This document shows, piece after piece, positions 1 to 45,871 of a DNA stretch of 64,000 nt (position 1 is the stretch's first letter; each line of letters opens with the position of its first letter). This DNA is from Flectonema sp. DT1601 (Eukaryota): positions 1,240,001 through 1,304,000 of the forward strand of contig OZ025795.1 of NCBI GenBank assembly GCA_964019425.1, written 5' to 3'. Under the pieces are notes generated by a model that did no database searches, had not been told where the DNA came from, and was given only the letters and a program-made list of their open reading frames with translations. A program made the position numbers and the translations under genes.

Positions 1-2283
1 TTTTTCTTTCCTCCCCAAAAAAAAAAAATATTTTTATTTGATTGCAAAGCAACGATAACTTATTTGAATTGAGTCTTCTGTTTGCTGTGAGTTACCCTCC
101 TGGAGCACTTATAATATAGAGCAACAGAGATGTTTTAATAACTAAACCACACTAAGTCACTAGTTACACAACTCAATACAGTAACATGCTAAGAATATGG
201 AAAGAGTAAAGCTTTGAATACTTTCTGAGAGGCGGGCTGGGTGAAATCCAACCATTATTTGTTTGTTGTCCTACAATTTTTTGCATTTGATTTTCTTAGA
301 TGACTGATTACTATTAGTACTATGCAGGGGTGCCAGGCGCCGAGGGAAGCGTTTTTTATATTATGACAACACGGAAAAAGAGATGTTTATGCAGCTACGT
401 TAGAAACATTTATTATAAAGTAAAGTCTTCTACGTCATCTGCGGAGTGTTTGCCAATACTAACATTACCCTTTAGTAAACATGGATCATAACTAACGTTT
501 TATTTATTGTTAACTCTGGTACAATACAGATATTTAGTTCTTCATAAATATACTCAAAACATTCAACCCATCTTTTCTTTTCTGTTTGGTCAGGGAAATT
601 AATAATTATAACTTGTGAGATCTGCTGGATCTGTCCGCAGCATTGGAGAAGTTAAAACACTTCCAGGAAGTGTTAGTTCTGCTGTGTCGAAAGTTAATCT
701 GTTTTGTACACAGTGAATAAAGGAAGGTCTGTGAAGAGGGTTTCCGGTACAAAGCCACGCACTTGTACTATTTATACAAATATTATTATATTATATTAAT
801 GACCAAACTATCACCTTCATTTCTAAGGATACCTTCTTATTATCACAGCCTTGTAGTTGATTGCAACAACAACTCTTCTCGATCACTTTGTAATTAGAAC
901 ATCACTTTATTTAGTCAATATTGCTTTCTTTGTAAGAATCTAATAACATGGAGCATCCTTGTAGTATTCGATAACCAGACATTAGACAAATCAGGGATCG
1001 TATTTATAATTGTTTCCTCCCGCTTGGCGTTGAAACATTTCCACTTTTTTGCAGCCGTTTCAACACTTGTGAATAACACCTTCTTCTCCTTCAGGAAACT
1101 ACTCAAAACAACAATGCAGGTTTTTGTGACGTGTCCGGATTTGGGATTCCCCGCAGTGTCAGTCACGACTGGTGTTGATTCCCTTGTGAGCGAAGTGTTG
1201 ACGGCGGCGGCTGGGGAGTGGGATGTGGATCCGAACTGTCGTTCGCTGGTGACACGCTTTGCGAAAGTGAGCGACTAGCAGATTGTGGAGTGGTTGGAGA
1301 GAGCGAGTTGGAGATGTGGAAGAAGCGGTTTCGTATATTCAGTAAATGCTGGTTTGTTGATGATTCAAAACGGGAGAAGCTGCTTCGTTGGCTAAGAGAA
1401 CACAATGAGGAATACTTATGCCTTGACACCACAACATTCACAGAGGATGGTTGCCTCAGTATTAAGGGTGATTTGCTTCCTTCTGATGCCGAACGGATTT
1501 CTTTCCGCAATTCAAATCCCGACATCTCAGCCATCTCACAAGTTGTCACTATTGGAAATCGTTTCTTGTATCTTTGTTCACAAATCACTTCTCTTGATCT
1601 TTCAGGTCTTAGTAGTGTCACCACCATTGGAGATGGTTTCTTGCGTGGCTGTTCACAAATCACTTCTGTTGATCTTTCAGGTCTTAGTAGTGTCACCACC
1701 ATTGGAAATGCTTTCTTGCGTGGCTGTTCACAAATCACTTCTCTTGATCTTTCAGGTCTTTGTAGTGTCACCACTATTGGACATAGTTTCTTGTCTCATT
1801 GTTCACAAATCACTTCTCTTGACCTTTTACGTCTTAGTAGTGTCACCACTATTGGAAGTTTTTTCTTGTCTTCCTGCTCGCAAATCACTTCTCTTGATCT
1901 TTCACGTCTTAGTAGTGCCACCACTATTGGAGATGCATTCTTGTGTCACTGTTCACAAATCACTTCTCTTGATCTTTCAGGTCTTAGTAGTGTCACCACC
2001 ATTGGAGATGCTTTCTTGTCTTCCTGCTCGCAAATCACTTCTCTTGATCTTTCTGGTCTTAGTAGTGTCACCACCATTGGAAATGTTTTCTTATATCACT
2101 GTTCACAAATCACTTCTCTTGATCTTTCAAGTCTTAGTAGTGTCACCACTATTGGAAATAGTTTCTTGTCTCATTGTTCACAACAATATCACTGTTCACA
2201 AGTCACTTCTCTTGACCTCTCAGGTCTTGGTAGTGTTACCGCTGTTGGAAGTTTTTTCTTGTCTTCCTGTTTACAAATTACTT

Positions 2284-2356
2284 GGGTAACGAAACTCGGA
2301 CAGCGCGCCTCCTCGTGGTGTTGCCTGGATGCACCTTGTGTGTAACTAGAGTGCTG
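2284..2356 (+). ncRNA. HDV-like self-cleaving ribozyme at the element 5' end (copy 1)
   Basis: P1 GGGUAAC/GUUGCCU (G1-U wobble), P2 CAGCGC/GUGCUG, P3 GCC/GGU, L3 UCCUCGU, P1.1 CC/GG, P4 UGCAC/GUGUA, and J4/2 ACUAGA with candidate catalytic C2346. Confidence 0.85.
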
Positions 2357-2989
2357 ACGTATTGTTGTTGTTGCTGTGTATTCTTTTACCCCCGTTTTAT
2401 TTTCCGGTAGCCTAACCTTTAAAAAAAAAGGACAACATAGCAGAAGGTCAGGTGATCCGGCCCGGGATACTCAGGCACCCAGAGCTCACAGGGGCCACCG
2501 GGTTTTTATTTTTTCCTTAGTGGCATGATTTCCCTTTAACCCCATTTCCTTCAAACTTCCCCCGTTTAGTCTTTTCACGCATGGGGGGATTATAAGTTCA
2601 GGTCGCCTGAAATGTATTATGTTGTGTATCAGCCCCGCGAGTTACTCGGGGAGCTCCCATGCAATGTGTGGAGAAAGAGGCCATCCCTCCCCCTACCTCT
2701 CTGCTTTACTACGTCGTTTTTTGTGTGTGGCATTTCTTTTCTTATATTCTTTTCTTTTCAATCTTGTTCCTTCACACGCAGTTGTTCGAGCGGTTGTGAA
2801 CCACCTTGGGTCTCTTACGGTCTCCAAGCTACTGTTGTGCGAAGAAACAAATCTGTTGGTGCGGTGGCCTTCCGACGCCACCTGGACCGCAACTCGTTCA
2901 CAGTGCCCTACCCGGTTCTCCACCGGACCGCCTGAGCGACGGGATCCATGGGATTCAAACCCCTAAACACTGGTTAATTTTTTTTTTTT
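2284..2989 (+). mobile_element. Family A non-autonomous retroelement (SINE-like), copy 1
   Basis: Near-identical to 3544-4194 and 4290-4982. Flanked by the direct repeat ttcctgtttacaaattactt (2264-2283 and 2990-3009). 3' T run at 2978-2991. No long ORF. Confidence 0.9.
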
Positions 2990-3543
2990 TTCCTGTTTAC
3001 AAATTACTTCTCTTGACCTCTCAGGTCTTAGTAGTGTCACCACTATAGGAAATTATTTCTTGTTTAAGTGTACACAAATCACTTCTGTTGACCTTTCAGA
3101 TCTTAGTAGTGTGATTAAAATAGGCGATAGGTTCCTTGCTAATTGCAATGCACTTGAATCTGTTCAGCTGCCTGTAAATAATGGCGCTCTCTTTGAGGAG
3201 TCTGTGGAAGCAGCGATTAATCATTAAGTTTTGTTTTGTTAATTTTTTATTTAGCTTTCTTTCAATTTACGAGTTTTCTTATTATTTTTCATTCTTTCTA
3301 AAGTGTGTTGTATTTTTGTTTTGTTTGTGCTCTCGCTGCTGTGAAAGCTTAGGAATACTGAAGAATACTTATGCCTTGACACCACAACATTCACAGAGGA
3401 TGGTTGCCTCAGTATTAAGGGTGATTTGCTTTCTTCTGATGCCGAACGGATTTCTTTCCGCAATTCAAATTCCGACATCTCAGCCATCTCACAAGTTGTC
3501 ACTATTGGAAATCGTTTCTTGTCTAGCTGTTCACAAATCACTT

Positions 3544-3616
3544 GGGTAACGAAACTCGGACAGCGCGCCTCCTCGTGGTGTTGCCTGGATGCACCTTGTG
3601 TGTAACTAGAGTGCTG
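3544..3616 (+). ncRNA. HDV-like ribozyme (copy 2)
   Basis: Identical to 2284-2356. Confidence 0.85.
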
Positions 3617-4194
3617 AGGTAGCCTAACCTTTAAAAAAAAAAAAAAGGACAACATAGCAGAAGGTCAGGTGATCCGGCCCGGGATACTCAGGCACCCAGA
3701 GCTCACAGGGGCCACCGGGTTTTTATTTTTTCCTTAGTGGCATGATTTCCCTTTAACCCCATTTCCCTCAAACTTCCCCCGTTTAGTCTTTTCACGCATG
3801 GGGGGATTATAAGTTCAGGTCGCCTGAAATGTATTAACAGTATCAGCCCGCGAGTTACTCGGGGAGCTCCCATGCAATGTGTGGAGAAAGAGGCCATCCT
3901 TCCCCCTACCTCTCTGCTTTACTACGTCGTTTTTTGTGTGTGGCATTTCTTTTCTTATATTCTTTTCTTTTCAATCTTGTTCCTTCACACGCAGTTGTTC
4001 GAGCGGTTGTGAACCACCTTGGGTCTCTTACGGTCTCCAAGCTACTGTTGTGCGAAGAAACAAATCTGTTGGTGCGGTGGCCTTCCGACGCCACCTGGAC
4101 CGCAACTCGTTCACAGTGCCCTACCCGGTTCTCCACCGGACCGCCTGAGCGACGGGATCCATGGGATTCAAACCCCTAAACACTGGTTAATTTT
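3544..4194 (+). mobile_element. Family A retroelement, copy 2 (internal ~48-bp deletion just after the ribozyme)
   Basis: Same termini (gggtaacgaaac ... aacactggttaa + T run) and same insertion point in the LRR unit. Left and right flanks come from different repeat variants. Confidence 0.9.
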
Positions 4195-4289
4195 TTCCTG
4201 CTCGCAAATCACTTCTCTTGATCTTTCAGGTCTTGGTAGCGTCACCACCATAGGAGATTATTTCTCGTCTTCCTGTTCACAAATTACTT

Positions 4290-4362
4290 GGGTAACGAAA
4301 CTCGGATAGCGCGCCTCCTCGTGGTGTTGCCTGGATGCACCTTGTGTGTAATTAGAGTGCTG
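4290..4362 (+). ncRNA. HDV-like ribozyme (copy 3), candidate catalytic C changed to U
   Basis: Same fold as copy 1. The first P2 pair C-G becomes U-G, and J4/2 reads AUUAGA (T4352). Confidence 0.75.
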
Positions 4363-4982
4363 ACGTATTGTTGTTGCTGTGTATTCTTTTACCCCCGTTT
4401 TATTTTCCGGTAGCCTAACCTTTAAAAAAAAAAAGGACAACATAGCAGAAGGTCAGGTGATCCGGCCCGGGATACTCAGGCACCCAGAGCTCACAGGGGC
4501 CACCGGGTTTTTATTTTTTCCTTAGTGGCATGATTTCCCTTTACCCCCATTTCCTTCAAACTTCCCCCGTTTAGTCTTTTCACGCATGGGGGGATTATAA
4601 GTTCAGGTCGCCTGAAATGTATTAACAGTATCAGCCCGCGAGTTACTCGGGGAGCTCCCATGCAATGTGTGGAGAAAGAGGCCATCCTTCCCCCTACCTC
4701 TCTGCTTTACTACGTCGTTTTTTGTGTGTGGCATTTCTTTTTTTATATTCTTTTCTTTTCAATCTTGTTCCTTCACACGCAGTTGTTCGAGCGGTTGTGA
4801 ACCACCTTGGGTCTCTTACGGTCTCCAAGCCACTGTTGTGCGAAGAAACAAATCTGTTGGTGCGGTGGCCTTCCGACGCCACCTGGACCGCAACTCGTTC
4901 ACAGTGCCCTACCCGGTTCTCCACCGGACCGCCTGAGCGACGGGATCCATGGGATTCAAACCCCTAAACACTGGTTAATTTT
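4290..4982 (+). mobile_element. Family A retroelement, copy 3
   Basis: Direct repeat ttcctgttcacaaattactt at 4270-4289 and 4983-5002. T run at 4979-4984. Confidence 0.9.
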
Positions 4983-5319
4983 TTCCTGTTCACAAATTAC
5001 TTCTCTTGACCTTTCTGGTCTTAGTAGTGTCACCACTACTGGACAACGTTTCTTATATCACTGTTCACAAATCACTTCTGTTGACCTCTCAGGTCTTAGT
5101 AGTGTGATTAAAATAGGCAATAGGTTCCTTGGTAATTGCAATGCACTTGAATCTGTTCAGCTGCCTGTAAATAATGGCGCTCTCTTTGAGGAGTCTGTGG
5201 AAGCAGCGATTAATCATTAAGTTTTGTTTTGTTAATTTTTTAATTTTCTTTCTTTCAATTTGAGTTTTTTTTTCTTTCTTTCTTAATTCTTCTAAAGTGT
5301 GTAATTTATAAAGTTGAGA

Positions 5320-5640: not shown

Positions 5641-6330
5641 CAACACCTTCTGATCAATAAGACAAAATTTTCTTTCCCCCTTTTTATGTTTTCTTTTTCT
5701 AAACGTACCTTTTATTTGATTAACAACTACAAATATTCTTTCAGTCAAGTTGATATTCATTTTGTTTTTAATATCTAAAGTTGTTACTGTTTTTTCATGT
5801 CAAAGTTTAACCCCCTCTTAGGTGTTTGTTTGCTATTGTTAAGTTTTGAAGACGTTTTAATTATTAATTTACATATTGTCATAGACGAGGTCTCCATACG
5901 ACTGGTCGGACTCCAAGCTTTCTGAATTACTTTCTCGGTTAAGGCGCCTCCTGCAGTGAAATCCCCTCGCAAGATTTTTATTGTCCTTTCCAAGACCCTT
6001 CAAAAGAAGAATTCCGGCGCAGTTATGACCTTAAACTGACTGTCATCTTACCTGATCCTTTTGGTTTTTATTTCTTGCTGAGTGATATGGCTATGTGCTG
6101 CCTAATTTTTTGTGGTACATTTCTAAAGCTTTTCGGTAAGCCCGCAGTACAATTGTAATGCTTTGGACAACTGGGGGTGAACGATCCTCGGTACTGTTCC
6201 GGGGTTTTCTATTTTCTTTCGTGGAGTGTGGGCATATGGCACATATGGTCGTATTATAAAGAAAGATGTATATGAAAGAAAGAAGATTTTTTATATTTTT
6301 CACCTTTCCCCCACTCCCAGGTCATTTCTC
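5640..6330 (-). mobile_element. Second decayed RLE-element fragment with putative 3' UTR
   Basis: 6130-6330 is homologous to 5340-5540. 5640-5820 is homologous to 46360-46525. Confidence 0.45.
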
Positions 6331-6493
6331 TTTTATTTTCTTTAGTTGTTTACAACCTGTTAGCCTCTGGGCAAGGTGGAGGCTGGAAGTCGATCACTTC
6401 CAGCCAATACTATGAAACTACAATCTTCGCGATTGGGTCCTTACTGATGCGGGCTACCCAGACCCCTCGTAGTCACCAGTTTGTATTTTGCTA
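6229..6493 (+). repeat. Dispersed repeat containing the family B structured module; followed by an A-rich run
   Basis: Near-identical to 7129-7392. The core 6415-6493 recurs at 7631-7710. Perfect hairpin ggctggaagt/acttccagcc at 6381-6405. Confidence 0.85.
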
Positions 6494-6532
6494 AAAAAAA
6501 GAAGAAAAAAAAAAAAATCCCATTGCGAGGTT

Positions 6533-6689
6533 CTTCACGAATCACTTCTCTTGATCTTTCTGGTCTTAGTAGTGTGATTAATTTTGGAGAGAACGTCCTT
6601 GTTGATTGCAATGCACTTAAATCTGTTCAGCTGCCTGTAAATAATGGAGCTCTCTTTGAAGAGTTTATGAAAGCAGTGATTATCATTAA
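6533..6689 (+). pseudogene. Isolated last LRR unit + C-terminal cap of the LRR gene family
   Basis: Encodes SRITSLDLSGLSSVINFG...CNALKSVQLPVNNGALFEE. Confidence 0.8.
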
Positions 6690-7128
6690 TTTGCCAGTCA
6701 ACTGTTTCACAACTGATGTTTATTTATTGTTAACTCTAGTACAATCTTTATTTATTTCTCGGTCATTATTAATACGAAAACCAACAGTGTAGCAGGATGG
6801 CTGCTTGTCCCTACCTAAGAAATGTTCATTTTTATTTTTTTATAAAGATTGTTTATTTCTTGACGAGACTATAGGCGAAACCTACACTCTGCCGTATTAC
6901 ATTATACCCTGGTTTTGGTTTCCCAGGGCTCACGATTAATTCGTAATTGAATAACTCGATTCCGTACTGCATGACAACACGGAATGATAAGTTAGAAACA
7001 TTAATTATAATGTAGAGCAAGTACGTCATTTGCAGAGTGTTAGCCTGTATTAACATTTTTAGTCACTGTGTCATGAGTTTTTTTAATTTTATTATTGAGC
7101 TTTGATACAATACGGAGATTTATATTCA

Positions 7129-7416
7129 TGGGCATATGGCACATGTGGTCGTATTATAAAGAAAGATGTATATGAAAGAAAGAAGATTTTTTATTTTTTT
7201 CACTTTCCCCCACTCCCAGATCATTTCTCTTTTATTTTCTTTTGTTGTTTACAACCTGTTAGCCTCTGGGCAAGGTGGAGGCTGGAAGTCGATCACTTCC
7301 AGCCAATACTATGAAACTACAATCTTCGCGATTGGGTCCTTACTGATGCGGGCTACCCAGACCCCTCGTAGTCATCAGTTTGTATTTTGCTAACTAAACT
7401 AAACTAAACTAAACTA
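7129..7416 (+). repeat. Family B copy 2 with (ACTAA)n tail
   Basis: Matches 6229-6493. Tail is taactaaactaaactaaactaaacta. Confidence 0.85.
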
Positions 7417-7630
7417 TATTCGTGTGAAAACAGTCTTTCCCCCGCCGGTGTCCCGCCGAACCGAATTGGGCCTGGCACAACCCCTACGCAGAAGTAATCT
7501 GCACCCTTTCATGGTGTAGTTAGTTCTTTGTTGGATACAATTCTGGTGTTTGTCTTTACCTTCAATCTTAACATATACTTATTTCTCAGGTGCATAAAGT
7601 GATGGAAAGCGAATTACTACCGAAGCTATA

Positions 7631-7717
7631 AAACTACAATCTTTGCGATTGGGTCCTTACTGATGTGGGCTACTTAGACCCCTCGTAGTCATCAGTTCTG
7701 TATTTTGCTAACTAAAA
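7631..7717 (+). repeat. Family B core, copy 3
   Basis: aaactacaatc...gattgggtccttactgatg...cgtagtcatcag...tattttgctaactaaa. Confidence 0.8.
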
Positions 7718-15405: not shown

Positions 15406-18400
15406 ATGAGCGATTCTGACGATGATCAACTCGCAGAGATATTGGGTACAGACTTAAACAACTATCTACTAAACAGAGGTGATAGGAGAACTACTTTATC
15501 GTGTGGTGATTATGATGAAGCAGACTTAGACAGAATCTTAAACGAAGACGAAGGTAACAATGATTCAAGAACTCCAACCTTACCATCTGCTGGATCTTCC
15601 AGTGATGAAGATGAACGATTAATAGCTGAGCTCTACGCTATGGAAGGCATCATCGATGAAGCAAAGAAACCCACAACTGTTGAAGAAGAACAACAATCTC
15701 CTCCTCCAGTTGAAAATAACATCGCTCTTGTTCCCGAAATCGAAGAAGAAGCATTGTCTCCTACATCACTGTCTCCCGAACCAACGGTTTCCCCATCACC
15801 AAAGAATCAAAAGCGTGGATTCTTTTCAAGAGTTTCAAATTCAAACAGTGCTTCCCCAAGAAACAAGAGTAATAGTCCTCAAAAAGGTTGGTCATCAGTG
15901 ACAAATAAAATTCTTGGTGGATGTAAAGCTGAGAATACCCAAAGCTCAATTCTCGATGACGGAAGTACTTTAAAAGATGAAATCGAACTCTTGGAACAAA
16001 TAATAGCTGAGATAGAAGCTGATGATGAGAGTACTGTTAGTGATACGGATTTAGGTCTTAATGAAACAATAATAGACGTCGATACCATTTTAAAGAATGC
16101 TGAGCGGGCGGTAAATCGTCGAAACGGATCACAGTCTGAAGCACCTTCTCATCAGTATAGCACACTCGCAGCATCGAGTACGAATTTTGGTAAAATTCCT
16201 CTCTTAAAACACACAAACTATTCAGAAATTAGCGCAGAGCTGTACGAACGCCGTAACGACGCTGGTTTTCAAGTTGTTTCGGTTTCCGCTACTGCGGTCG
16301 CTACACCACTTGCTAAACGACGCAATATCAAAATATCATTCGCTGTAGGCACAGCTGATGGAGGAGTCATGTTGTTTACGGATGCAGGTCTGTAACTTTC
16401 TTTCTCACACGTCATAATTGGATGCTTAATTAAAAAAAAAAAAGATAATAAAAAATAGGAAAACGTTGCGACCATTTATCAGCCCCATCTGCATCTGCAG
16501 GGATGTGTACATGCATTGATTTGTTTCATACAGGAGAAGCAGTTGCTTGCGGATATCAAAACGGATCTGTCGTCCTGTTCGATACCGTGTCAAGAACAAT
16601 TATGAGAACTTTAGAAGGTGAATGGGGTGCACCCTTACACCGGGTTCAATGGATGCTAAGCACTGACCCACCTAATAAGATATGTGGACAATGTATTCAC
16701 GGAACTGTTAAGATTATAGCTTTACGAAAGATGCTTAAAATGACGCAGGTTCAGCTTGCTGCTGGAGTTGATAAAGAGATGTTAGAAATCTCAAATATTA
16801 CAATAAAACCACCTCATCGATTAGACTTAGAGGCTGTACCACTACTCGCAATGGCATCTCGTAAAGTCTTAACTCTGACTAAAGTAAAGTTTACGACCGC
16901 TTCGATATCAATACCAGAACCGTTTTATTCTTTTGATAATCCTCATGATGCTCCTCGTCCTGGAACTGAACGAGAAACTACTGCCGCAGACAGAGCCGCA
17001 CTCGCAAAGAAAGGAAAAGCATATTTCCAATCAGTTCGAAAAAAAGAAGCCGAAAGAAAATTACGCGAAGACCGTGCGATCGCATTCCCAACTCTGTCCT
17101 GGTTAACAAGAAGAGATCCAGAACTGGTTGTGTTGTGGCATGATTTCTTATTTGTTGTTCAAGTTGATAGTAATTCATTACTTGATAAAGACATGAGGCC
17201 AAGAATCATACCTGTAGCACAAGTGTTATTAAAATACGCTGCAGTCAGCTGTGTCTACATGTCTCAACGTGCTGTTACTGTTATTGACAGCAGAGGTACT
17301 ATTTTAGTAGTCGATCCGAGAGTGAGTCCAACCAGAGCAACTGTCGACGCTTCTGATATTAAATTAACCCTCGATGTGACAGTAGCATCTAGCGGTGGTC
17401 GTAAGAGTGTACGACAAGCTATTTGTGGATATGTCAACGACGGTACTGCATCCCTTCTAGCTCTCGGTAGAGCACCTGTGAGTCTTTTAAAATGGGAAAT
17501 ACTCAGATGGGATGACAGGTTACAATTATTAGGTCCAAGTATTGAAGCTTTAACTCTCGCAAAGCAAATGCGTCTCGGAGAAGCTGCAGCTGTTGTTGGT
17601 CTTCCTGAACAAGAAAGTAGTAGAAATTCACTTTTAGATGAATCGATCGAAAGAATGATCGCAGCATACCTGACAAGAGAAACAGAATCATCCAATACAA
17701 CATCAGCAGACATGTGGAGATCACTCGGGTTGTTCCTTTTTGAGTATTGCTGTTCTGTGGAGTTGCCTGGATTGTTATTCACTGGACTTTACAAAGCATT
17801 CTGTCAATATGGAATGACAAACATATGGGCGACACTTTTAGAACCTTGTATTAGAAGTAAAAAGGTTAGTGGGATGCCTAACTTCTTTGTTAACTTATTA
17901 GCTGAATGGCTATTAAAGGGAGCAGTGCTTTGCTATATATTTGAAGGTCCTCATGAATGTAATGGTTCACCTGATAAAGTAATTCAAATAGCTCATGATA
18001 GTAGTCATAATCCGAGAGTGTTCACCATAGATGTTTTTGTCAAACCAAGTACTTCATCAAAGCGCAATGTTCAAACACCAGTATCATCATTGTGCTATAA
18101 AACGAATTCTGGTTGGTCTTTCACTCTAACAGAAAATTCAATTTGGTCTCTCGAGCTTGGCACAGGTGATGACATAATCACTATGTCCGATACCAGTGAA
18201 AGGCCTGCGGAATCTTATTACCCAGAATGGACACGTTTAACGGCAGTTTACGCATCTGGTGAAGCAAATTTTTACATCAACAAACAACTGGTTGATTCCC
18301 AAGAAGTTTATTCTTTCATTCCGAATACTGGAAGCCCTCTCATTATTGGTGGGACTGTGAGAGAGAGTTCAGTCGGATCTGGAGTGGTGGACATTGAAAA

Positions 18401-21400
18401 GAGTTTCATTGGAGGAGTTAAAAATTTATTTATTTATAGTTCGACTCATTATCCTTTTGTTGAAGTTAGTGAAGACTATGAACAAATAGATCTTATTACT
18501 GATGATATTTATGCTCCTTCAGTTAGAGAGGAAGCCTCTACAATGCATCCAAGTGAACCAAACACGTTGTTTGCAGCAGATGATCTGCTGCCAGAAATTG
18601 CGAGCATTTCATCATCAGGTTCTGAAACTGGGTCACAGATAACAAGCAGCTCTCCTTTAAGTCGATTGGAAGCTTTACTGTTGAACTTGACACCTGAATC
18701 TATGGCGGAATTCTCAGGTAAATATAACGTAGTTCTGTCGGTCGCTTATAAATTTCATCTTTTTCGTTCGTTTACGTTTTATCACAATAAAGCCACAGCG
18801 GACGGATACATCACACCTTTAACTCTTTTATTCGGAATGCTTGGTAAGCCTGTTCCTGGATCTGTTGTTCGCCACACATCACAATCTGATTGTGGTACAG
18901 TCATTGAGTCTGAGCCACCTCACTTGGTAATAGACTTCTCTGGTGATATAAAAAAAATATCTGCCGGTGAGCTTACCGTAACCCAATCATCACCTCCAAA
19001 TAAATGGGTTCGAAGGGTGTTGTTGGAATATTTAAAACGCCTCTTCAGAGGTCGAACATTCAACATCGGTCATGAGGTACCCAAAGAACAGCTTCGCAGT
19101 ATAAAAAAAAATGCTTTGGATTTTTTATTTCATGAAGATTCTGGTAAAAAAGAATCAAAAATACATCACAGAAGCTATCCAGTGTTGGAAGAACTGATGA
19201 AACACGATGCTGAAGGAGTTATTCTCGCGATAATTGCATCGTTTAAGGATGACTCGGTAAGTTACTCACCTTGGAGAAAGATCTTAGCGCCGGGGGTTCG
19301 TCCATTGACGCTAATGGAAGCTCCGCAACCTTCAAGTCGTTTCAGACTCTCTCGAGATGAAGTGATCGCAGTTTTAATAACAAAATTGAACGTCTCTGAG
19401 TTCCAACCGTTCGAAGCAAGTAAGACTTTTCAAAGACCATGGCCTGCTAAGAAGGATGTTGTTTCACTGTTTTTACTAATTGCTGAATCAATATCGAGAG
19501 AAGTCATCCAACCAAAAAAATTCAACAAAGACATGATCAAAAGAGTAGTTACTCATTTAACACACGCATGTCCACCTGAGGAAACAATCGCAAGACAAAA
19601 GAAACTTGAAGCAATGTTGGAAGTAGCTTTACATCCAGAAAAAGGATGTTGGGGTGAAGCAGGTTTATCAGAAGAAGAAACAGCGCAGTTGTCTAGTTTG
19701 GTTCAAGCCGCAGGATTCGCTATGTTGCAGATCTATTTTTATAAAAGAGACAATGACTATATGGCTGTTCTTCGATCATATCTGCAGGCTCATCATGACC
19801 CTGACTGTTTGATTGAAGATGATGCAGTGTTTGTCTTCTTAGAAGAAACAATGGGTCGAGCATCACACGCTACTTCAGATAGACAATCAAAACTTCAAAA
19901 AGCCGTCGTTGAAAATTTTATGGACCTCGTAAAAGTAAATTCAACCAGAGCAGCTCAACTCGGTGTTAAATGCCTCCGTTCTGAACACAGTTTGATTCTC
20001 AAGCAGTTAGACGCTGATCCCAAAACTCAATATGGATATCTTCAATCACTTTATACGACAACAGCAACACAACCAGGTGACCCTGATGATGATGACTATA
20101 TTGATTTACCAAGTCTTTTTGATGCAGAAACAGTCATGAAGTTCATATCACTTCTATGTATGTTTGATGAGAGAACTCTATTAGACTTCCTTCGTAAGAA
20201 TGAGGGTGTCGTTGAAATACCTCGCATGCTTCACATAATAGAACGAACTGTTAGTCGTTCTGATGATCAGGAGGGTTATGGAGAAGGTCGTGACTCAGCC
20301 AAAGCATATTTATATTCAAAAACTGGTAGGTATGGTGAAGCGTTAAATCTTTTATTTAATGGTCTCCCAGCGAGAATGCAAGAAGTCAGGGCAAGAGTTG
20401 TTGATCGTGTCGCAAGAGAACAATACTACACAGCGTCACACGCATCAGGTGTGAGTTATGATATTTCATCACCAGCATTTGGATTTGGGACAACAAAAGC
20501 AAGCACAACCATACCTAGGACATTATCAGACACGTCTCACGCCATACTTGGGGATCTTACTATCGCACAGGAAATTCTTCAAACAAGAGAAGCTCGTGCC
20601 GTGTTTGAACTTATTGATATCGGAGCGTCTCTATGTACAGATGCTATGAATGGAGGAGGTCCTGACGATGACGGATCTCATGTTTGGTTTACTTTGTTAG
20701 ATAAGTTTATCAGACCGAAAAAAATACTTTCAGACGTCGAAAAAGAATCTTTTGAATGGTTTAAATTTGAAGCCGTCATTGGTGGTATCGCTATTGTCGC
20801 AACTACTTTAATTGAACTTCGGCTTTCTCGAAAGCAAACTATGAAGAAATTATCTTCACACGAACCTACTCAGGGATTGGAACGACGTAATAAAATTAGA
20901 GATCTTCGTCTTGGCAGTCGGATCTCAATTAGCGATTCAAATGTTGTCGATGAGCTTGCTGAAGTATCGGTATGTGTATTCTTCTCAAGTCTACAACTGT
21001 AGTACAGAATAGAAAGCGGAAGAAAAAACAAAACAAAAAAACAGGCGCGTGAACGTATCCGTACCAAGTACAATCCAAGTAGAAGGCTCCTCGTGTCTTC
21101 TTTCTCTCCACACTTATTCTCTGCAAACCAGAGAATGCAAGAGGTGTGTACTTTCAGTATCTCTGTAGTGTATCCAAACAAATATAAAAAAAAACAAAAT
21201 AAAATAACAGCTTTACACGCAATTCATTACACACATCCTTCTGCAGATGATGATAAAGATGCACAACTCTCAGGTATTAATAAAAAAAGGAAAACATATT
21301 TCAATCTTATAACTGGAACGCTAATAACAAAAAAAAAAAACATAACACAAAAAACAGGCAACGACAGAGCAAGAAGCACAAGAAATAAATGAATTGCGAA

Positions 21401-39577: not shown

Positions 39578-40402
39578 CATATTGATGTAAGTACCAAACA
39601 TTTGTGTGTTCGGTTACTGTTGAATTTCTTTTTTCTTTTTTTCTTCTAATTGTCTCCTTTACACGCAAAAAAAAGAAAAAGTGTTGTGCGATTTAGTGAG
39701 CACTCAGGTGTCGAAAGAAGCATTTTCTGCTTCTGGAAGTGCCACGAAACTCAACACATCTTACGAATACAGTTGAGTATGAGCGGAATTCTTTTGTTAT
39801 TTAACCCTTGCTGGGTTAAGGGAAATTTCTTCATAAATATACTCAAAACATTCAACCCATCTTTTCTTTTCTGTTTGGTCAGGGAAATTAATAATTATAA
39901 CTTGTGAGATCTGCTGGATCTGTCCGCAGCATTGGAGAAGTTAAAACACTTCCAGGAAGTGTTAGTTCTGCTGTGTCGAAAGTTAATCTGGTTTGTACAC
40001 AGTGAATAAAGGAAGGTCTGTGAAGAGGGTTTCCAGTACAAAGCCACGCACTTGTACTATTTATACAAATATTATTATATTATATTAATGACCAAACTAT
40101 CACCTTCATTTCTAAAGATACCTTCTTATTATCGCAGCCTTGTAGTTGATTGCAACAACAACTCTTCTCGATCACTTTGTAATTAGAACATCACTTTATT
40201 TAGTCAATATTGCTTTCTTTGTAAGAATCTAATAACATGGAGCATCCTTGTAGTATTCGATAACCAGACATTAGACAAATCAGGGATCGTATTTATAATT
40301 GTTTCCTCCCGCTTGGCGTTGAAACATTTCCACTTTTTTGCAGCCGTTTCAACACTTGTGAATAACACCTTCTTCTCCTTCAGGAAACTACTCAAAACAA
40401 CA

Positions 40403-42907
40403 ATGCAGGTTTTTGTGACGTGTCCGGATTTGGGATTCCCCGCAGTGTCATTCACGACTGGTGTTGATTCTCTTGTGAGCGAAGTGTTGACGGCGGCGGC
40501 TGGGGAGTGGGATGTGGATCCGGAGGAAGTTGAACTGTCGTTCGCTGGTGACACGCTTTGCGAAAGTGAGCGACTAGCAGATCGTGGAGTTGTTGGAGAG
40601 AGCGAGTTGGAGATGTGGAAGAAGCGGTTTCGTATATTCAGTAAATGCTGGTTTGTTGATGATTCAAAACGGGAGAAGCTGCTTCGTTGGCTAAGAGAAC
40701 ACAATGAGGAATACTTATGCCTTGACACCACAACATTCACAGAGGATGGTTGCCTCAGTATTAAGGGTGATTTGCTTCCTTCTGATGCCGAACGGATTTC
40801 TTTCCGCAATTCAAATCCCGACATCTCAGCCATCTCACAAGCTGTCACTATTGGAAATCGTTTCTTGTATCTTTGTTCACAAATCACTTCTCTTGATCTT
40901 TCACGTCTTAGTAGTGTCACCACTATTGGAGATGATTTCTTGCGTGGCTGTTCACAAATCACTTCTCTTGATCTTTCAGGTCTTAGTAGTGTCACCACTA
41001 TTGGAGATGATTTCTTGCGTGGCTGTTCACAAATCACTTCTCTTGATCTTTCAGGTCTTAGTAGTGTCACCACTATTGGACGTAGTTTCTTGTCTCATTG
41101 TTCACAAATCACTTCTCTTGATCTTTCAGGTCTTAGTAGTGTCATCACTATTGGAAGTCTTTTCTTGTCTTCCTGCTCACAAATCACTTCTCTTGATCTT
41201 TCAGGTCTTAGTAGTGTCACCACTATTGGAGATGATTTCTTGCGTGGCTGTTCACAAATCACTTCTCTTGATCTTTCAGGTCTTAGTAGTGTCACCACTA
41301 TTGGACGTAGTTTCTTGTCTCGTTGTTCACAAATCACTTCTCTTGATCTTTCAGGTCTTAGTAGTGTCACCACTATTGGAGATGATTTCTTGCGTGGCTG
41401 TTCACAAATCACTTCTCTTGATCTTTCAGGTCTTAGTAGTGTCACTACTATTGGACGTAGTTTCTTGTCTCGTTATTCACAAATCACTTCTCTTGATCTT
41501 TCAGGTCTTAGTAGTGTCATCACTATTGGAAGTCTTTTCTTGTCTTCCTGCTCACAAATCACTTCTCTTGATCTTTCAGGTCTTAGTAGTGTCACCACTA
41601 TTGGAGATGATTTCTTGCGTGGCTGTTCACAAATCACTTCTCTTGATCTTTCAGGTCTTAGTAGTGTCACCACTATTGGAGATGATTTCTTGCGTGGCTG
41701 TTCACAAATCACTTCTCTTGATCTTTCAGGTCTTAGTAGTATCACCACTATTGGACGTAGTTTCTTGTCTCATTGTTCACAAATCACTTCTCTTGATCTT
41801 TCAGGTCTTAGTAGTGTCATCACTATTGGAAGTCTTTTCTTGTCTTCCTGCTCACAAATCACTTCTCTTGATCTTTCAGGTCTTAGTAGTATCACCACTA
41901 TTGGACGTAGTTTCTTGTCTCATTGTTCACAAATCACTTCTCTTGATCTTTCAGGTCTTAGTAGTGTCACCACTATTGGAGATGATTTCTTGCGTGGCTG
42001 TTCACAAATCACTTCTCTTGATCTTTCAGGTCTTAGTAGTGTCACCACTATTGGAGATGATTTCTTGCGTGGCTGTTCACAAATCACTTCTCTTGATCTT
42101 TCAGGTCTTAGTAGTATCACCACTATTGGACGTAGTTTCTTGTCTCATTGTTCACAAATCACTTCTCTTGATCTTTCAGGTCTTAGTAGTGTCATCACTA
42201 TTGGAAGTCTTTTCTTGTCTTCCTGCTCACAAATCACTTCTCTTGATCTTTCAGGTCTTAGTAGTGTCACCACTATTGGAGATGATTTCTTGCGTGGCTG
42301 TTCACAAATCACTTCTCTTGACCTTTTACGTCTTAGTAGTGTCACCACTATTGGACGTAGTTTCTTGTCTCGTTATTCACAAATCACTTCTCTTGATCTT
42401 TCAGGTCTTAGTAGTGTCACCACTATTGGAGATGATTTCTTGCGTGGCTGTTCACAAATCACTTCTCTTGATCTTTCAGGTCTTAGTAGTGTCACCACTA
42501 TTGGACGTAGTTTCTTGTCTCATTGTTCACAAATCACTTCTCTTGATCTTTCAGGTCTTAGTAGTGTCATCACTATTGGAAGTCTTTTCTTGTCTTCCTG
42601 CTCACAAATCACTTCTCTTGATCTTTCAGGTCTTAGTAGTGTCACCACTATTGGACATAGTTTCTTGTCTCATTGTTCACAAATCACTTCTCTTGACCTC
42701 TCACGTCTTAGTAGTGTCACCACTATTGGAAGTCATTTCTTGTCTTCCTGCTCACAAATCACTTCTCTTGATCTTTCTGGTCTTAGTAGTGTGATTAAAA
42801 TAGGCGATAGGTTCCTTGCTAATAGCAATGCACTTGAATCTGTTCAGCTGCCTGTAAATAATGGCGCTCTCTTTGAGAAGTCAGTGGAAGCAGCGATTAA
42901 TCATTAA
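40403..42907 (+). CDS. Ubiquitin-like domain + 26 x 25-aa BspA/TpLRR-type leucine-rich repeat protein
   Basis: ATG at 40403 follows ttcttctccttcag. The N-terminal ~75 aa has a ubiquitin-like pattern (MQVFV...VELSFAGDTL...LAD.GV...ELEM). Repeats are CSQITSLDLSGLSSVTTIGxxFLxx. Confidence 0.92.
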   Translation: MQVFVTCPDLGFPAVSFTTGVDSLVSEVLTAAAGEWDVDPEEVELSFAGDTLCESERLADRGVVGESELEMWKKRFRIFSKCWFVDDSKREKLLRWLREHNEEYLCLDTTTFTEDGCLSIKGDLLPSDAERISFRNSNPDISAISQAVTIGNRFLYLCSQITSLDLSRLSSVTTIGDDFLRGCSQITSLDLSGLSSVTTIGDDFLRGCSQITSLDLSGLSSVTTIGRSFLSHCSQITSLDLSGLSSVITIGSLFLSSCSQITSLDLSGLSSVTTIGDDFLRGCSQITSLDLSGLSSVTTIGRSFLSRCSQITSLDLSGLSSVTTIGDDFLRGCSQITSLDLSGLSSVTTIGRSFLSRYSQITSLDLSGLSSVITIGSLFLSSCSQITSLDLSGLSSVTTIGDDFLRGCSQITSLDLSGLSSVTTIGDDFLRGCSQITSLDLSGLSSITTIGRSFLSHCSQITSLDLSGLSSVITIGSLFLSSCSQITSLDLSGLSSITTIGRSFLSHCSQITSLDLSGLSSVTTIGDDFLRGCSQITSLDLSGLSSVTTIGDDFLRGCSQITSLDLSGLSSITTIGRSFLSHCSQITSLDLSGLSSVITIGSLFLSSCSQITSLDLSGLSSVTTIGDDFLRGCSQITSLDLLRLSSVTTIGRSFLSRYSQITSLDLSGLSSVTTIGDDFLRGCSQITSLDLSGLSSVTTIGRSFLSHCSQITSLDLSGLSSVITIGSLFLSSCSQITSLDLSGLSSVTTIGHSFLSHCSQITSLDLSRLSSVTTIGSHFLSSCSQITSLDLSGLSSVIKIGDRFLANSNALESVQLPVNNGALFEKSVEAAINH
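40874..42823 (+). repeat. Tandem array of 26 x 75-bp coding repeats
   Basis: 1950 bp = 26 x 75. Unit tgttcacaaatcacttctcttgatctttcaggtcttagtagtgtcaccactattggaNNNNNtttcttgNNNNNN. Confidence 0.97.
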
Positions 42908-43886
42908 GTTTTGTTTTGTTAATTTTTTATTTAGCTTTCTTTCAATTTACGAGTTTTCTTAGTATTTTTCATTCTTTCTAAAGTGTGTTGTATTTTTGTT
43001 TTGTTTGTGCTCTCGCTGCTGTGAAAGCTTCAATCCAATTTATTCTATGAACCTCTTCACGGAGTAGAATTAATTTAAATATAAAATTTCTGTTCAAATA
43101 TTGTTCGAATTGTAGTTCCAGGTGTTGCTTTGTAATGAACTTATTGAGTACTGGCTTTGTGGGAATCTAATAACACCTTCTTGTCCTTCAGCGAATTACT
43201 GAAAACAACAATGCAAAATTTTTTGTTTTAATGATGACGTTTTCCATTCGTCCTGATGATTTTGCAATGAGATAATTCTTTTTTTAGTAAAAGCAGGACT
43301 TCCTTTTTTGAGTTACAAAAAATTATTTATCGTTTTGGTTTCTCGGGGCTCACTACTTTCATTTATTTTATTTTATTTATTCATTTGTTTTCTTTTCTTT
43401 TCTCTATAGTTATCCTCATATCATTTTCTGACAACAATCGGACAAGGTGGAAAGCTGACAATAGGCATATTGTGTTCATTATGCCCCGTCAGCCGAAGCT
43501 ATAATAAAACAATCCTAATAAGATTGAGTCTAATTACGTTGCTGTTGTCCTCGTAGCTCTATTGGAGTTAACCCGATGCTCTTTAGTTTGCTGTCTATCA
43601 GCGATGCACAGTACGCAATGTATTGGACTTCCTTATTCTAAAGATACCTTCTTATTATCGCAGCCTTGTAGTTGATTGTAGTAAACCATATTTCATTCCT
43701 AAGGTGATGCAATGCTGTGGGTCACGGTGTGAACTGTTCAAGATGATAATGGTAGTGTTGGTTTTTGTAATCAAGAGTTAGACGACGACTTCTTTATTGA
43801 AGCTGTCAGTCCGTGGGTTTTCTTGTTGATATATGTTTTATGTGATTGTTTTTCTTTATCTTAATTTATCTATCAGAATAAATAAT

Positions 43887-44594
43887 ATGGCTGGTTATCC
43901 ACCACCACCGGGAGCTGGAGGCTACCCACCAGCTCAGGGTGCACCGGGAGGCTACCCTCCTGCGCCGGGTGCACCGGGAGGTTACCCACAGGCAAGTGCT
44001 CCAGGATACCCACCAGCTCAGGGTGCACCGGGAGGCTACCCTCCTGCCCCGGGAGCTCCTGGAGGTTACCCACAGGCAAGTGCTCCAGGATACCCACCTG
44101 CGCCTGGTGGTGGTGCACCAGTTGGATATTCCCCGGATGGCGGAGCTTACCCACAAAGTGGTTACCCCCCACAGGGAGGTGCTCCTGGCTACCCTCCAGC
44201 TCAGGCAGGTTACCCACCGGGAGGGTACCCTGGTTCTACCCCTTCGGGTGGAATGGTCAGCCAGTGCGGACCTGGCGAGGAGTATGTCCTGGAAGATGCA
44301 AAGGGAAACCGAATCCCAATCAGCTACGAAGAAGTTTGCGCAGCCGGTGGAGAAGGCGCCTCATACCAGAAAGAAGTTCCTACCAACGGAGCTAAAAGAC
44401 GAGGTATTGGAAAAATTTTATTAGCGGCAGCAGCAGCAGGTGTAGCTCTCTACATGCTGAGTGGCATAATTAAAAAAGTTAGAAGAGGAAGCAGCGGCAA
44501 GAAAGGAAGGAAGCGTTCAGGCTCGTCGTCGTCATCATCATCTTCGTCATCGTCGTCATCGTCGTCGTCATCATCATCTTCATCATCTTCCTAA
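43887..44594 (+). CDS. Pro/Gly/Tyr-rich (GYPP repeat) single-TM protein with poly-Ser tail, paralogue 1
   Basis: ATG at 43887, GYPPA repeats, hydrophobic [15 protein letters not shown], then a basic patch and a Ser run. Confidence 0.85.
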
Positions 44595-45175
44595 GATGAA
44601 CGATGTGCTCAATTATTTGTTTTACTTGCTATTAAAGAACGCAGCTAAAGAACAGCTGACATATTTCTATACAAGCCGGTGCAATATACAACTAACCTCG
44701 CAGGTATAGTTCGATGATTTCGGAGACGACTTGTTTGAACTGGGAAGAGGCTGAAAGCTGACTGCTGATGTCTGCTGATGTATTCTATTTCCCTTTCATG
44801 TTCGCCTCCCCACCGCCCCGCACTCTAGGAACTTTTTTTTAAAAGCGTCACTGTGACCATACAAAAAGCCGTGCGTCTTCGGCAAAAAGAAGTCAGAGAT
44901 GCCGACAAGATCTCTTCCATGGGAAAATTGATGTTGGATTTTATAAACAGACAATGAACTTAATTTGATCTGAGGGCACAATACAGCTTCCCATCCGATT
45001 TATTAGAAAAGATTTGGACGACGACTTCTTTATTGAAGCTTTATGTATTCATGGTGTTGTTTTTACTTTTTCTTGCTCCGTTTACCTTTCGCGAGATCTT
45101 CTCGTAGGTCTCCTTGTTGATATGTTTTATGTGATTGTTTTTCTTTATCTTAATTTATCCATCAGAATATATAAC

Positions 45176-45871
45176 ATGGCTGGTTATCCACCACCACCGG
45201 GAGCTGGAGGCTACCCACCAGCTCAGGGTGCACCAGGAGGCTACCCTCCTGCGCCGGGTGCACCGGGAGGTTACCCACCTGCCCCGGGAGCTCCGGGAGG
45301 TTACCCACAGGCAAGTGCTCCGGGATACCCACCTGCACCTGGTGGGGGGTATCCGCCTCAGGGTGGTGCACCAGTTGGATATTCCCCGGATGGCGGAGCT
45401 TACCCACAAAGTGGTTACCCCCCACAGGGAGGTGCTCCTGGCTACCCTCCAGCTCAGGCAGGTTACCCACCGCAGGCTGGTTACCCAACAGGAGGATACC
45501 CTGGTGCAACCCCTTCGGGTGGAATGGTCAGTCAGTGCGGACCTGACGAGGAGTATGTTCTGGAAGATGAAAAGGGAAACCGAATCCCAATCAGCTACGA
45601 AGAAGTTTGCGCAGCCGGTGGAGAAGGCGCCTCATACCAGAAAGAAGTTCCTACCAACGGAGCTGTTGGAGATAGAGGTATTGGTAAGATTTTATTAGCG
45701 GCAGCAGCAGCAGGTGTAGCTCTCTACATGCTCAGAGGAATAATTAGAAAAGTAAGAAGAGGAAGCAGCGGCAAGAAAGGAAAAAAGGACAAGAAAGATA
45801 AAAAGAAGAAGAAGGACAAGAAGAAGAAGAAGAAGCGTTCAGGTTCGTCATCATCTTCTTCATCTTCCTAA
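45176..45871 (+). CDS. Pro/Gly/Tyr-rich single-TM protein with Lys/Asp-rich tail, paralogue 2
   Basis: Tandem duplicate of 43887-44594, including the upstream acceptor region and 3' flank. Confidence 0.85.
   Translation: MAGYPPPPGAGGYPPAQGAPGGYPPAPGAPGGYPPAPGAPGGYPQASAPGYPPAPGGGYPPQGGAPVGYSPDGGAYPQSGYPPQGGAPGYPPAQAGYPPQAGYPTGGYPGATPSGGMVSQCGPDEEYVLEDEKGNRIPISYEEVCAAGGEGASYQKEVPTNGAVGDRGIGKILLAAAAAGVALYMLRGIIRKVRRGSSGKKGKKDKKDKKKKKDKKKKKKRSGSSSSSSSS

Follow-up and report, generated by a model that had tools for sequence, protein, structure and literature searches.

In the 64,000-nt stretch of DNA analyzed here (the window), a complete HDV-like ribozyme fold was found on the + strand at positions 2284-2356, at the very start of a repeated element. 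We consider it likely that this fold opens a non-autonomous non-LTR retrotransposon of about 690 nt, the RNA of which is predicted to release itself from the host transcript. The fold, its coincidence with the element boundary, the 20-bp target duplications, the fixed target position, the sense orientation and the high identity between copies were all observed directly. Several results count against this reading: ribozyme scores below the Rfam thresholds, a long J4/2, competing folds, lesions in J4/2, a copy that lacks an exact duplication, a tail made of T, no partner element found, and no two-sided change in the helices.

HDV-like ribozymes have been described as nested double pseudoknots with a P1 of 6-7 bp, a P1.1 of 1-2 bp, a P2 of at least 5 bp, a P3 of 3 bp and an optional P4 (PMC3774820, PMC3185411), and each of these features is present at 2284-2356. 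A sequence-only reading had proposed such a structure, and its helices and loops were borne out by a base-by-base check. P1 (2284-2290/2320-2326) forms all seven pairs, including the wobbles G2284·U2326 and U2287·G2323; the former is the G1·U wobble of HDV-like ribozymes and lies at the predicted cut (2283/2284). J1/2 covers 2291-2300. P2 (2301-2306/2351-2356) has 6/6 pairs with one G·U, P3 (2307-2309/2317-2319) has 3/3 with one G·U, and P4 (2330-2334/2340-2344) has 5/5 with two G·U. P1.1 consists of C2311-G2328 and C2312-G2327. The 7-nt L3 (2310-2316) carries the conserved U and G of the reverse wobble (U2310 and G2315) together with the CC of P1.1 (C2311-C2312), as described for this class (PMC3774820). 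The segment 2308-2318 is identical to the 11-nt motif given as the most conserved in R2 ribozymes (PMC5035012). The catalytic C at the start of J4/2 (2345-2350) is C2346 in this copy and C3606 in the second. The presence of a real and complete HDV-like ribozyme fold at 2284-2356 is confirmed.

The ribozyme belongs to the first of three copies of the element, the motif of which starts at 2284, 3544, and 4290, always on the + strand. The body of copy 1 (2284-2977, 694 nt), in which no protein-coding capacity was found, is followed by 14 T (2978-2991), the last two of which may belong to the target duplication. Copy 2 (3544-4190, 647 nt) has a ribozyme (3544-3616) identical to that of copy 1, a 48-nt deletion directly after it, and left and right targets that differ. 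Copy 3 (4290-4978, 689 nt) has its ribozyme at 4290-4362. Copies 2 and 3 are each followed by a run of six T. The three copies are 98.7-99.2% identical at aligned bases, while the flanks of copies 1 and 3 are only 78-92% identical.

The fixed 3' end, the homopolymer tail (a T run, not poly(A)) and a 5'-truncated copy read from a peptide (P0136, see below) are features of non-LTR retrotransposons. No LTR, terminal inverted repeat or enzyme-coding frame was detected in the element, and no autonomous partner was found within the 64-kb window. The longest open reading frame (2529-2963, 145 aa) gave two matches and no protein family in a search against 1.84 billion representatives; the strong match (P0135) is another copy of the element, and the other (P0139) was dropped as weak (E 6e-4) and repetitive. 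Exact patterns for the ribozyme core and for the 3' end of the element gave no hits in JGI metagenome contigs. A DNA transposon was rejected for want of inverted ends, and the absence of a tRNA head and the internal T runs speak against a Pol III SINE. The element as a whole folds no more stably than shuffled sequences (z 0.24). These features make it likely that the element is a non-LTR retrotransposon of the non-autonomous type, headed by an HDV-like ribozyme at its 5' end. The 48-nt deletion of copy 2 was also considered as a spliced intron, and this was rejected since its ends do not match GT-AG removal. Two other segments of the element resemble splicing signals: 2359-2430 is intron-like (GT, CTAAC, A run, AG) and similar to host introns, and 2740-2781 is a pyrimidine tract with CAG at its end, a possible acceptor for trans-splicing. 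No copy has either of them removed.

The sequence-only reading had placed the predicted cut exactly at the 5' boundary of the element. The boundary holds: the left 20-bp duplication ends at 2283, and at this point all empty LRR units continue with CTC or CTG. Exact 20-bp duplications flank two of the three copies, copy 1 (2264-2283 and 2990-3009) and copy 3 (4270-4289 and 4983-5002), and a compatible one is seen in P0136, as is characteristic of retrotransposons. The duplications of copies 1 and 3 both start with TT and differ from each other by one base, which is the same on both sides of each copy. The first four bases of the duplication may be the 3' end of the element, which gives a safe range of 16-20 bp and leaves the 5' boundary unaffected. 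All three copies occupy the same point within the 75-nt unit of BspA-type LRRs (Pfam LRR_5).

The LRR frame continues into the element, and further copies could therefore be recognized in public gene calls. Sixty close LRR paralog proteins were considered (52 search matches and eight cluster members, with one distant JGI match and the weak matches P0060-P0126 excluded), and 17 of them end in a peptide encoded by the element. At every one of these 17 junctions the element is entered at the same position, directly after Cys-x-x-x-Thr. The proteins come from contigs of 12 different sizes, possibly not all of one assembly. In P0058 the junction codon encodes Gly instead of Trp; therefore 2283 belongs to the target and 2284 to the element. 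The predicted cut is thus the 5' edge of the element in the window and in all 17 read-through copies, and that part of the earlier claim stands, while cleavage itself is a prediction. No element peptide in the +1 frame or from the antisense end was seen in 64 proteins, the third frame being undetectable as it stops after one codon. Partial element peptides occur in three more of the 60 proteins. The DNA deduced from the peptide of P0136 leaves an LRR, enters the element at position 2881 and passes through the T run into a target that matches its own left flank; this would be a 5'-truncated copy at the same site, a mark of target-primed reverse transcription. Two LRR proteins, P0038 and P0049, end exactly at the insertion position, which could reflect a changed first or second base of the element, truncated copies, or another insert at the site. 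In a related organism (run X3, one contig, depth 2) the element occupies the same position in another LRR variant.

It is possible, though we consider it unlikely, that the fold is an inherited relic of the 5' end of an ancestral LINE, now slow or dead, and that the RNA's 5' end is set by an internal promoter, as Pr77 is for L1Tc/NARTc, or by reverse transcription of read-through RNA simply stopping there. The structure of J4/2 bears on this question. The spacing from C2346 to P2 is five bases, compared with four in the Rfam drz-agam-1 consensus, so that J4/2 is one base longer. The conserved A of this junction would be either displaced by one inserted base or replaced by G. In the simplest fit, which follows HDV numbering, the extra base would sit at the looped-out position and A2350 would be the conserved A. 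The extra base speaks for a relic, but active ribozymes of the R2 and theta types have been reported to tolerate different lengths of J4/2 (PMC3774820, PMC10879173), although in the theta case the additional base stands at the end of the junction.

Competing folds also favor a relic. Nested folding of copy 1, in which pseudoknots are not scored, gave a pair probability below 0.1 for P1 and predicted two competitors: 2325-2328 pairs with 2346-2349, hiding the catalytic C, and a GUU-repeat tract on the + strand (2366-2378) pairs with the 5' strand of P1. The latter is a possible attenuator and is absent from copy 2; L1TcRz has been reported to possess an attenuator sequence downstream (PMC3383444). 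The element as a whole folds no more stably than shuffled sequences (z 0.24).

The variation among copies can be read on both sides. Two of the four copies read as DNA have no working J4/2. In copy 3 a T takes the place of the catalytic C (4352), a type of change reported to inactivate such ribozymes (PMC10879173), and the single X3 contig has lost 2340-2350, catalytic C included. A third lesion is probable in P0037, which, as read from its peptide, appears to lack about 2329-2347 and hence J4/2. Copies with the C-to-T change or the J4/2 deletion are predicted to be dead; the read-through peptides end before C2346 and are uninformative on the catalytic base. These lesions would suit a relic, as would reports that some well-folded SIDER ribozymes of trypanosomes are inactive in vitro (PMC4035085) and that Pr77 is promoter and ribozyme at once (PMC3383444). 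On the other hand, the variants that recur preserve or improve pairing. With C2301T the outer pair of P2 becomes U·G; this change is present in copy 3 (at 4307), in X3, and, by deduction, in the 13 of 17 proteins whose frame ends at that codon. With G2323A a wobble of P1 becomes U-A, in X3 and, again by deduction, in P0048 and P0037. No change that breaks P1, P2 or P3, the finding named beforehand as fatal to the proposal, was seen among the copies. Further against a relic, the start at G1 is exact at 17/17 intact junctions and in all three copies of the window, and every observed copy lies in sense, as expected if the element depends on host transcription.

Much less probable is a scenario in which one or a few insertions were carried to new places along with LRR genes, through segmental duplication, unequal crossing-over or gene conversion, the common position then reflecting ancestry and not a sequence-specific endonuclease. 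LRR arrays are prone to recombination. Copies 1 and 3 sit in corresponding units of two copies of the gene and have a rare target variant in common, and the mismatched flanks of copy 2, which has no exact duplication, suggest recombination. However, copies 1 and 3 each duplicate their own target variant, and the elements are more alike than their flanks. The 12-residue flanks of the 17 read-through proteins all differ (mean amino-acid identity 59%), and the number of LRR units before the junction varies from 0 to about 8. The 5'-truncated copy at the same site and yet another flank around the element in the related organism (X3) also argue against spread by recombination. Copy 2 (3544-4214) is flanked on the left by the initial LRR unit of a gene and on the right by an internal unit; this arrangement could have arisen either by recombination between two copies or by integration with loss of the intervening units. 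A Ser-Cys variant of the target is present at most right-hand junctions (2990, 4195 and 4983 in the window; P0051, P0135 and P0136), in 27% of 185 empty units, and at 3/17 left-hand protein junctions, numbers that are small and non-independent. The 3' end of the element may carry a few target-like bases.

Chance similarity to the ribozyme fold was assessed with a home-made HDV descriptor, composed after the site was known, so that chance is somewhat understated. On both strands of the 64-kb window it matched at 2284 and 3544 only, and it matched neither 300 dinucleotide shuffles of the window nor 20,000 shuffles of the element. A scan of 101 nt against 4,227 Rfam families gave two matches at E<=10, both to HDV-like ribozymes: drz-agam-1 (RF01787; 13.4 bits, cut-off 37) and HDV-F-prausnitzii (RF02682; 11.8 bits, cut-off 44). 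Both scores are about a third of the gathering cut-offs, and the matches point to a shared fold class and not to membership in those sequence families. No ribozyme was reported by Rfam over 12 kb in an E-value scan, and the whole window gave no match to any family at gathering score; the single match of the 12-kb scan, a snoRNA within the LRR, was judged to be chance. Among the copies, which are about 99% alike, helix variation consists of two one-sided changes, both compatible with pairing, and no two-sided change. Chance pairing at the 5' end of an ordinary repeat would accord with the sub-threshold scores and with the absence of covariation proper, but it can be practically dismissed given the lack of any match in the shuffles, a fold start that equals the element boundary to the base, and a core identical to the conserved R2 motif (PMC5035012).

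The retrotransposon with a self-releasing RNA would operate as follows. Host Pol II would read through the LRR gene into the element, and the ribozyme would cleave 5' of G2284 to produce a unit-length RNA that retains the ribozyme. The endonuclease of a putative autonomous element would nick the LRR unit with a stagger of about 20 nt, and the reverse transcriptase of this partner would copy the RNA from its U-rich 3' end by target-primed reverse transcription. In copies 1 and 3 the duplication starts with TT; the end of the nicked strand would accordingly be AA and could prime at the U-rich end. Full-length copies would start at G1, and incomplete ones would be 5'-truncated at the same site.

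The locus is compatible with this scheme. All 19 long open reading frames of the window are on the + strand, with the element in sense, and the element would therefore be co-transcribed. Release of its RNA from a host co-transcript would fit this orientation; R2 and L1Tc/NARTc are cases in which such release has been demonstrated or suggested (PMC3383444, PMC6765202). Diplonema genes have been described as likely co-transcribed in a paper the consulted part of which leaves ribozymes unmentioned (PMC10161547). No RNA contigs over 2100-2400 were found in either of two marine metatranscriptomes, which contain 10% and 5%, respectively, of the sequence words from 2200-3100; this result bears neither way on expression. 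A neighboring gene matched only mS23 from mitoribosome structures of kinetoplastid type. Host genes are split by short GT-AG introns, the 3' ends of which (20970-21044; near 16390-16460) are A-rich and not pyrimidine-rich. The mS23 match, the single coding strand and the introns suggest that the host is a cis-splicing euglenozoan, probably a diplonemid. No rRNA was detected in the window by Rfam at gathering score, and the LRR protein had no match in viral contigs.

Copy 1 interrupts a BspA-type LRR gene (1114-3227, + strand), and the read-through frame stops at 2343-2345, inside the ribozyme. The sequence before insertion is given by an intact paralog (40187-42907, + strand), which has a 906-aa open frame and 26 target sites without the element. 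Compared with this paralog, the interrupted gene has a 10-nt deletion near 1232 that shifts the frame upstream of the insertion. Severing of the host pre-mRNA would follow mechanically from cleavage, but it would matter little at 1114-3227 because the in-frame stop and the frameshift already disable the gene. An 18-nt in-frame duplication is also present in this gene near 2180. Copies 2 and 3 lie in a second, partial LRR gene copy (3359-5220, + strand). Other repeats were observed in the window. A second family (6229-6494, 7129-7393 and 7626-7717; copies 97.7% and about 90-93% identical) is possibly another short retroelement; the A run that closes its first copy lies close upstream of a C-terminal LRR fragment (6523-6692). 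Two tandem Gly/Pro-rich repeat genes (43830-44594 and 44969-45871) are 82% identical.

The ribozyme extends the list of HDV-like examples; its J4/2 is slightly long, and the natural variants with C-to-U or without the possible attenuator provide ready-made controls. The element matters more than the ribozyme. It seems to disable a large share of the LRR gene family, as 17 of the 60 proteins examined end in it. Discovery of the partner enzyme would add a new site-specific reverse transcriptase/endonuclease with a stagger of about 20 nt that tolerates much target variation. A bolder reading, which we offer tentatively and regard as improbable, is that the element is the passenger of a so far undescribed lineage of sequence-specific retrotransposons for which a protein-coding repeat serves as safe harbor. 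Its endonuclease would read the phase of the degenerate 75-nt LRR unit, priming would occur at the U-rich end and not at poly(A), roughly one in four members of the BspA-LRR family would be silenced or truncated by the ribozyme and the in-frame stop, and recombination between copies would alter repeat number. The element would then shape the LRR repertoire of its host.

Retroelements with 5' HDV-like ribozymes are already well known in the same phylum, and 5' ribozymes have been reported in six LINE clades (PMC5786205). Both Rfam families matched here, drz-agam-1 and HDV-F-prausnitzii, align over the whole model, with a matching P3/L3/P1.1 core. Webb et al. reportedly described an HDV-like ribozyme, drz-Dpap-1, from Diplonema papillatum in 2009; if so, HDV-like ribozymes in diplonemids are not new. 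The literature searched, with most subscription journals and Repbase outside its scope, yielded no relevant report on drz-Dpap or an HDV-like ribozyme of Diplonema, and no non-LTR element that combines site specificity with a T tail or with insertion in LRR sequences.

Strict site specificity is known in euglenozoans from CZAR, SLACS, and CRE (PMC5814959), and SLACS-type reverse transcriptases have been annotated in D. papillatum (PMC10161547). CZAR, SLACS, and CRE are autonomous, unlike the present element, and target spliced-leader RNA genes; this class is a candidate for the putative partner. Like the present element, they have longer target duplications. Retroelements that favor one site in the genes of a large protein-coding family, and so give rise to pseudogenes, are found in Trypanosoma at the RHS hot spot (ingi/RIME) and as TcTREZO in MASP pseudogenes (PMC7563717, PMC5814959). 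In those families there is one site per gene, whereas here every 75-nt LRR unit offers a site, and the consulted parts of these reports mention no ribozyme for TcTREZO (PMC5814959, PMC7563717).

The trypanosomatid elements L1Tc, NARTc, RIME, and SIDER have hosts in the same phylum, as far as the present host can be placed, and an HDV-like ribozyme (L1TcRz/Pr77) in their first ~75 nt that cuts 5' of +1 (PMC3185411, PMC3383444, PMC4035085). The L1Tc/NARTc/SIDER group also resembles our element in its non-autonomous short forms, in the proposed release from polycistronic Pol II transcripts and in a downstream attenuator (PMC3185411, PMC3383444, PMC4035085). The L1Tc/ingi clade, however, has duplications of about 12 bp, poly(A) and relative site specificity (PMC6765202, PMC3383444), in contrast to about 20 bp, a T run and one position here; the element was set apart from this clade on duplication length and tail. 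R2 and the R2/R2-R1 SIDEs of Drosophila are site-specific elements, the SIDEs non-autonomous, in which an HDV-like ribozyme at the 5' end detaches the RNA from a host co-transcript (PMC3414825, PMC3774820), and R2 ribozymes share the 11-nt core motif (PMC5035012). R2 resides in 28S rDNA (Pol I) of animals and many R2s cut upstream in the target sequence, whereas here the target is a protein-coding BspA LRR_5 repeat of a protist and P1 is entirely encoded by the element, which by its target is not an R2. The element is best understood as working in the manner of NARTc/SIDER and the R2 SIDEs; its strict LRR-codon target, duplication of about 20 bp and T tail make it a distinct variant.
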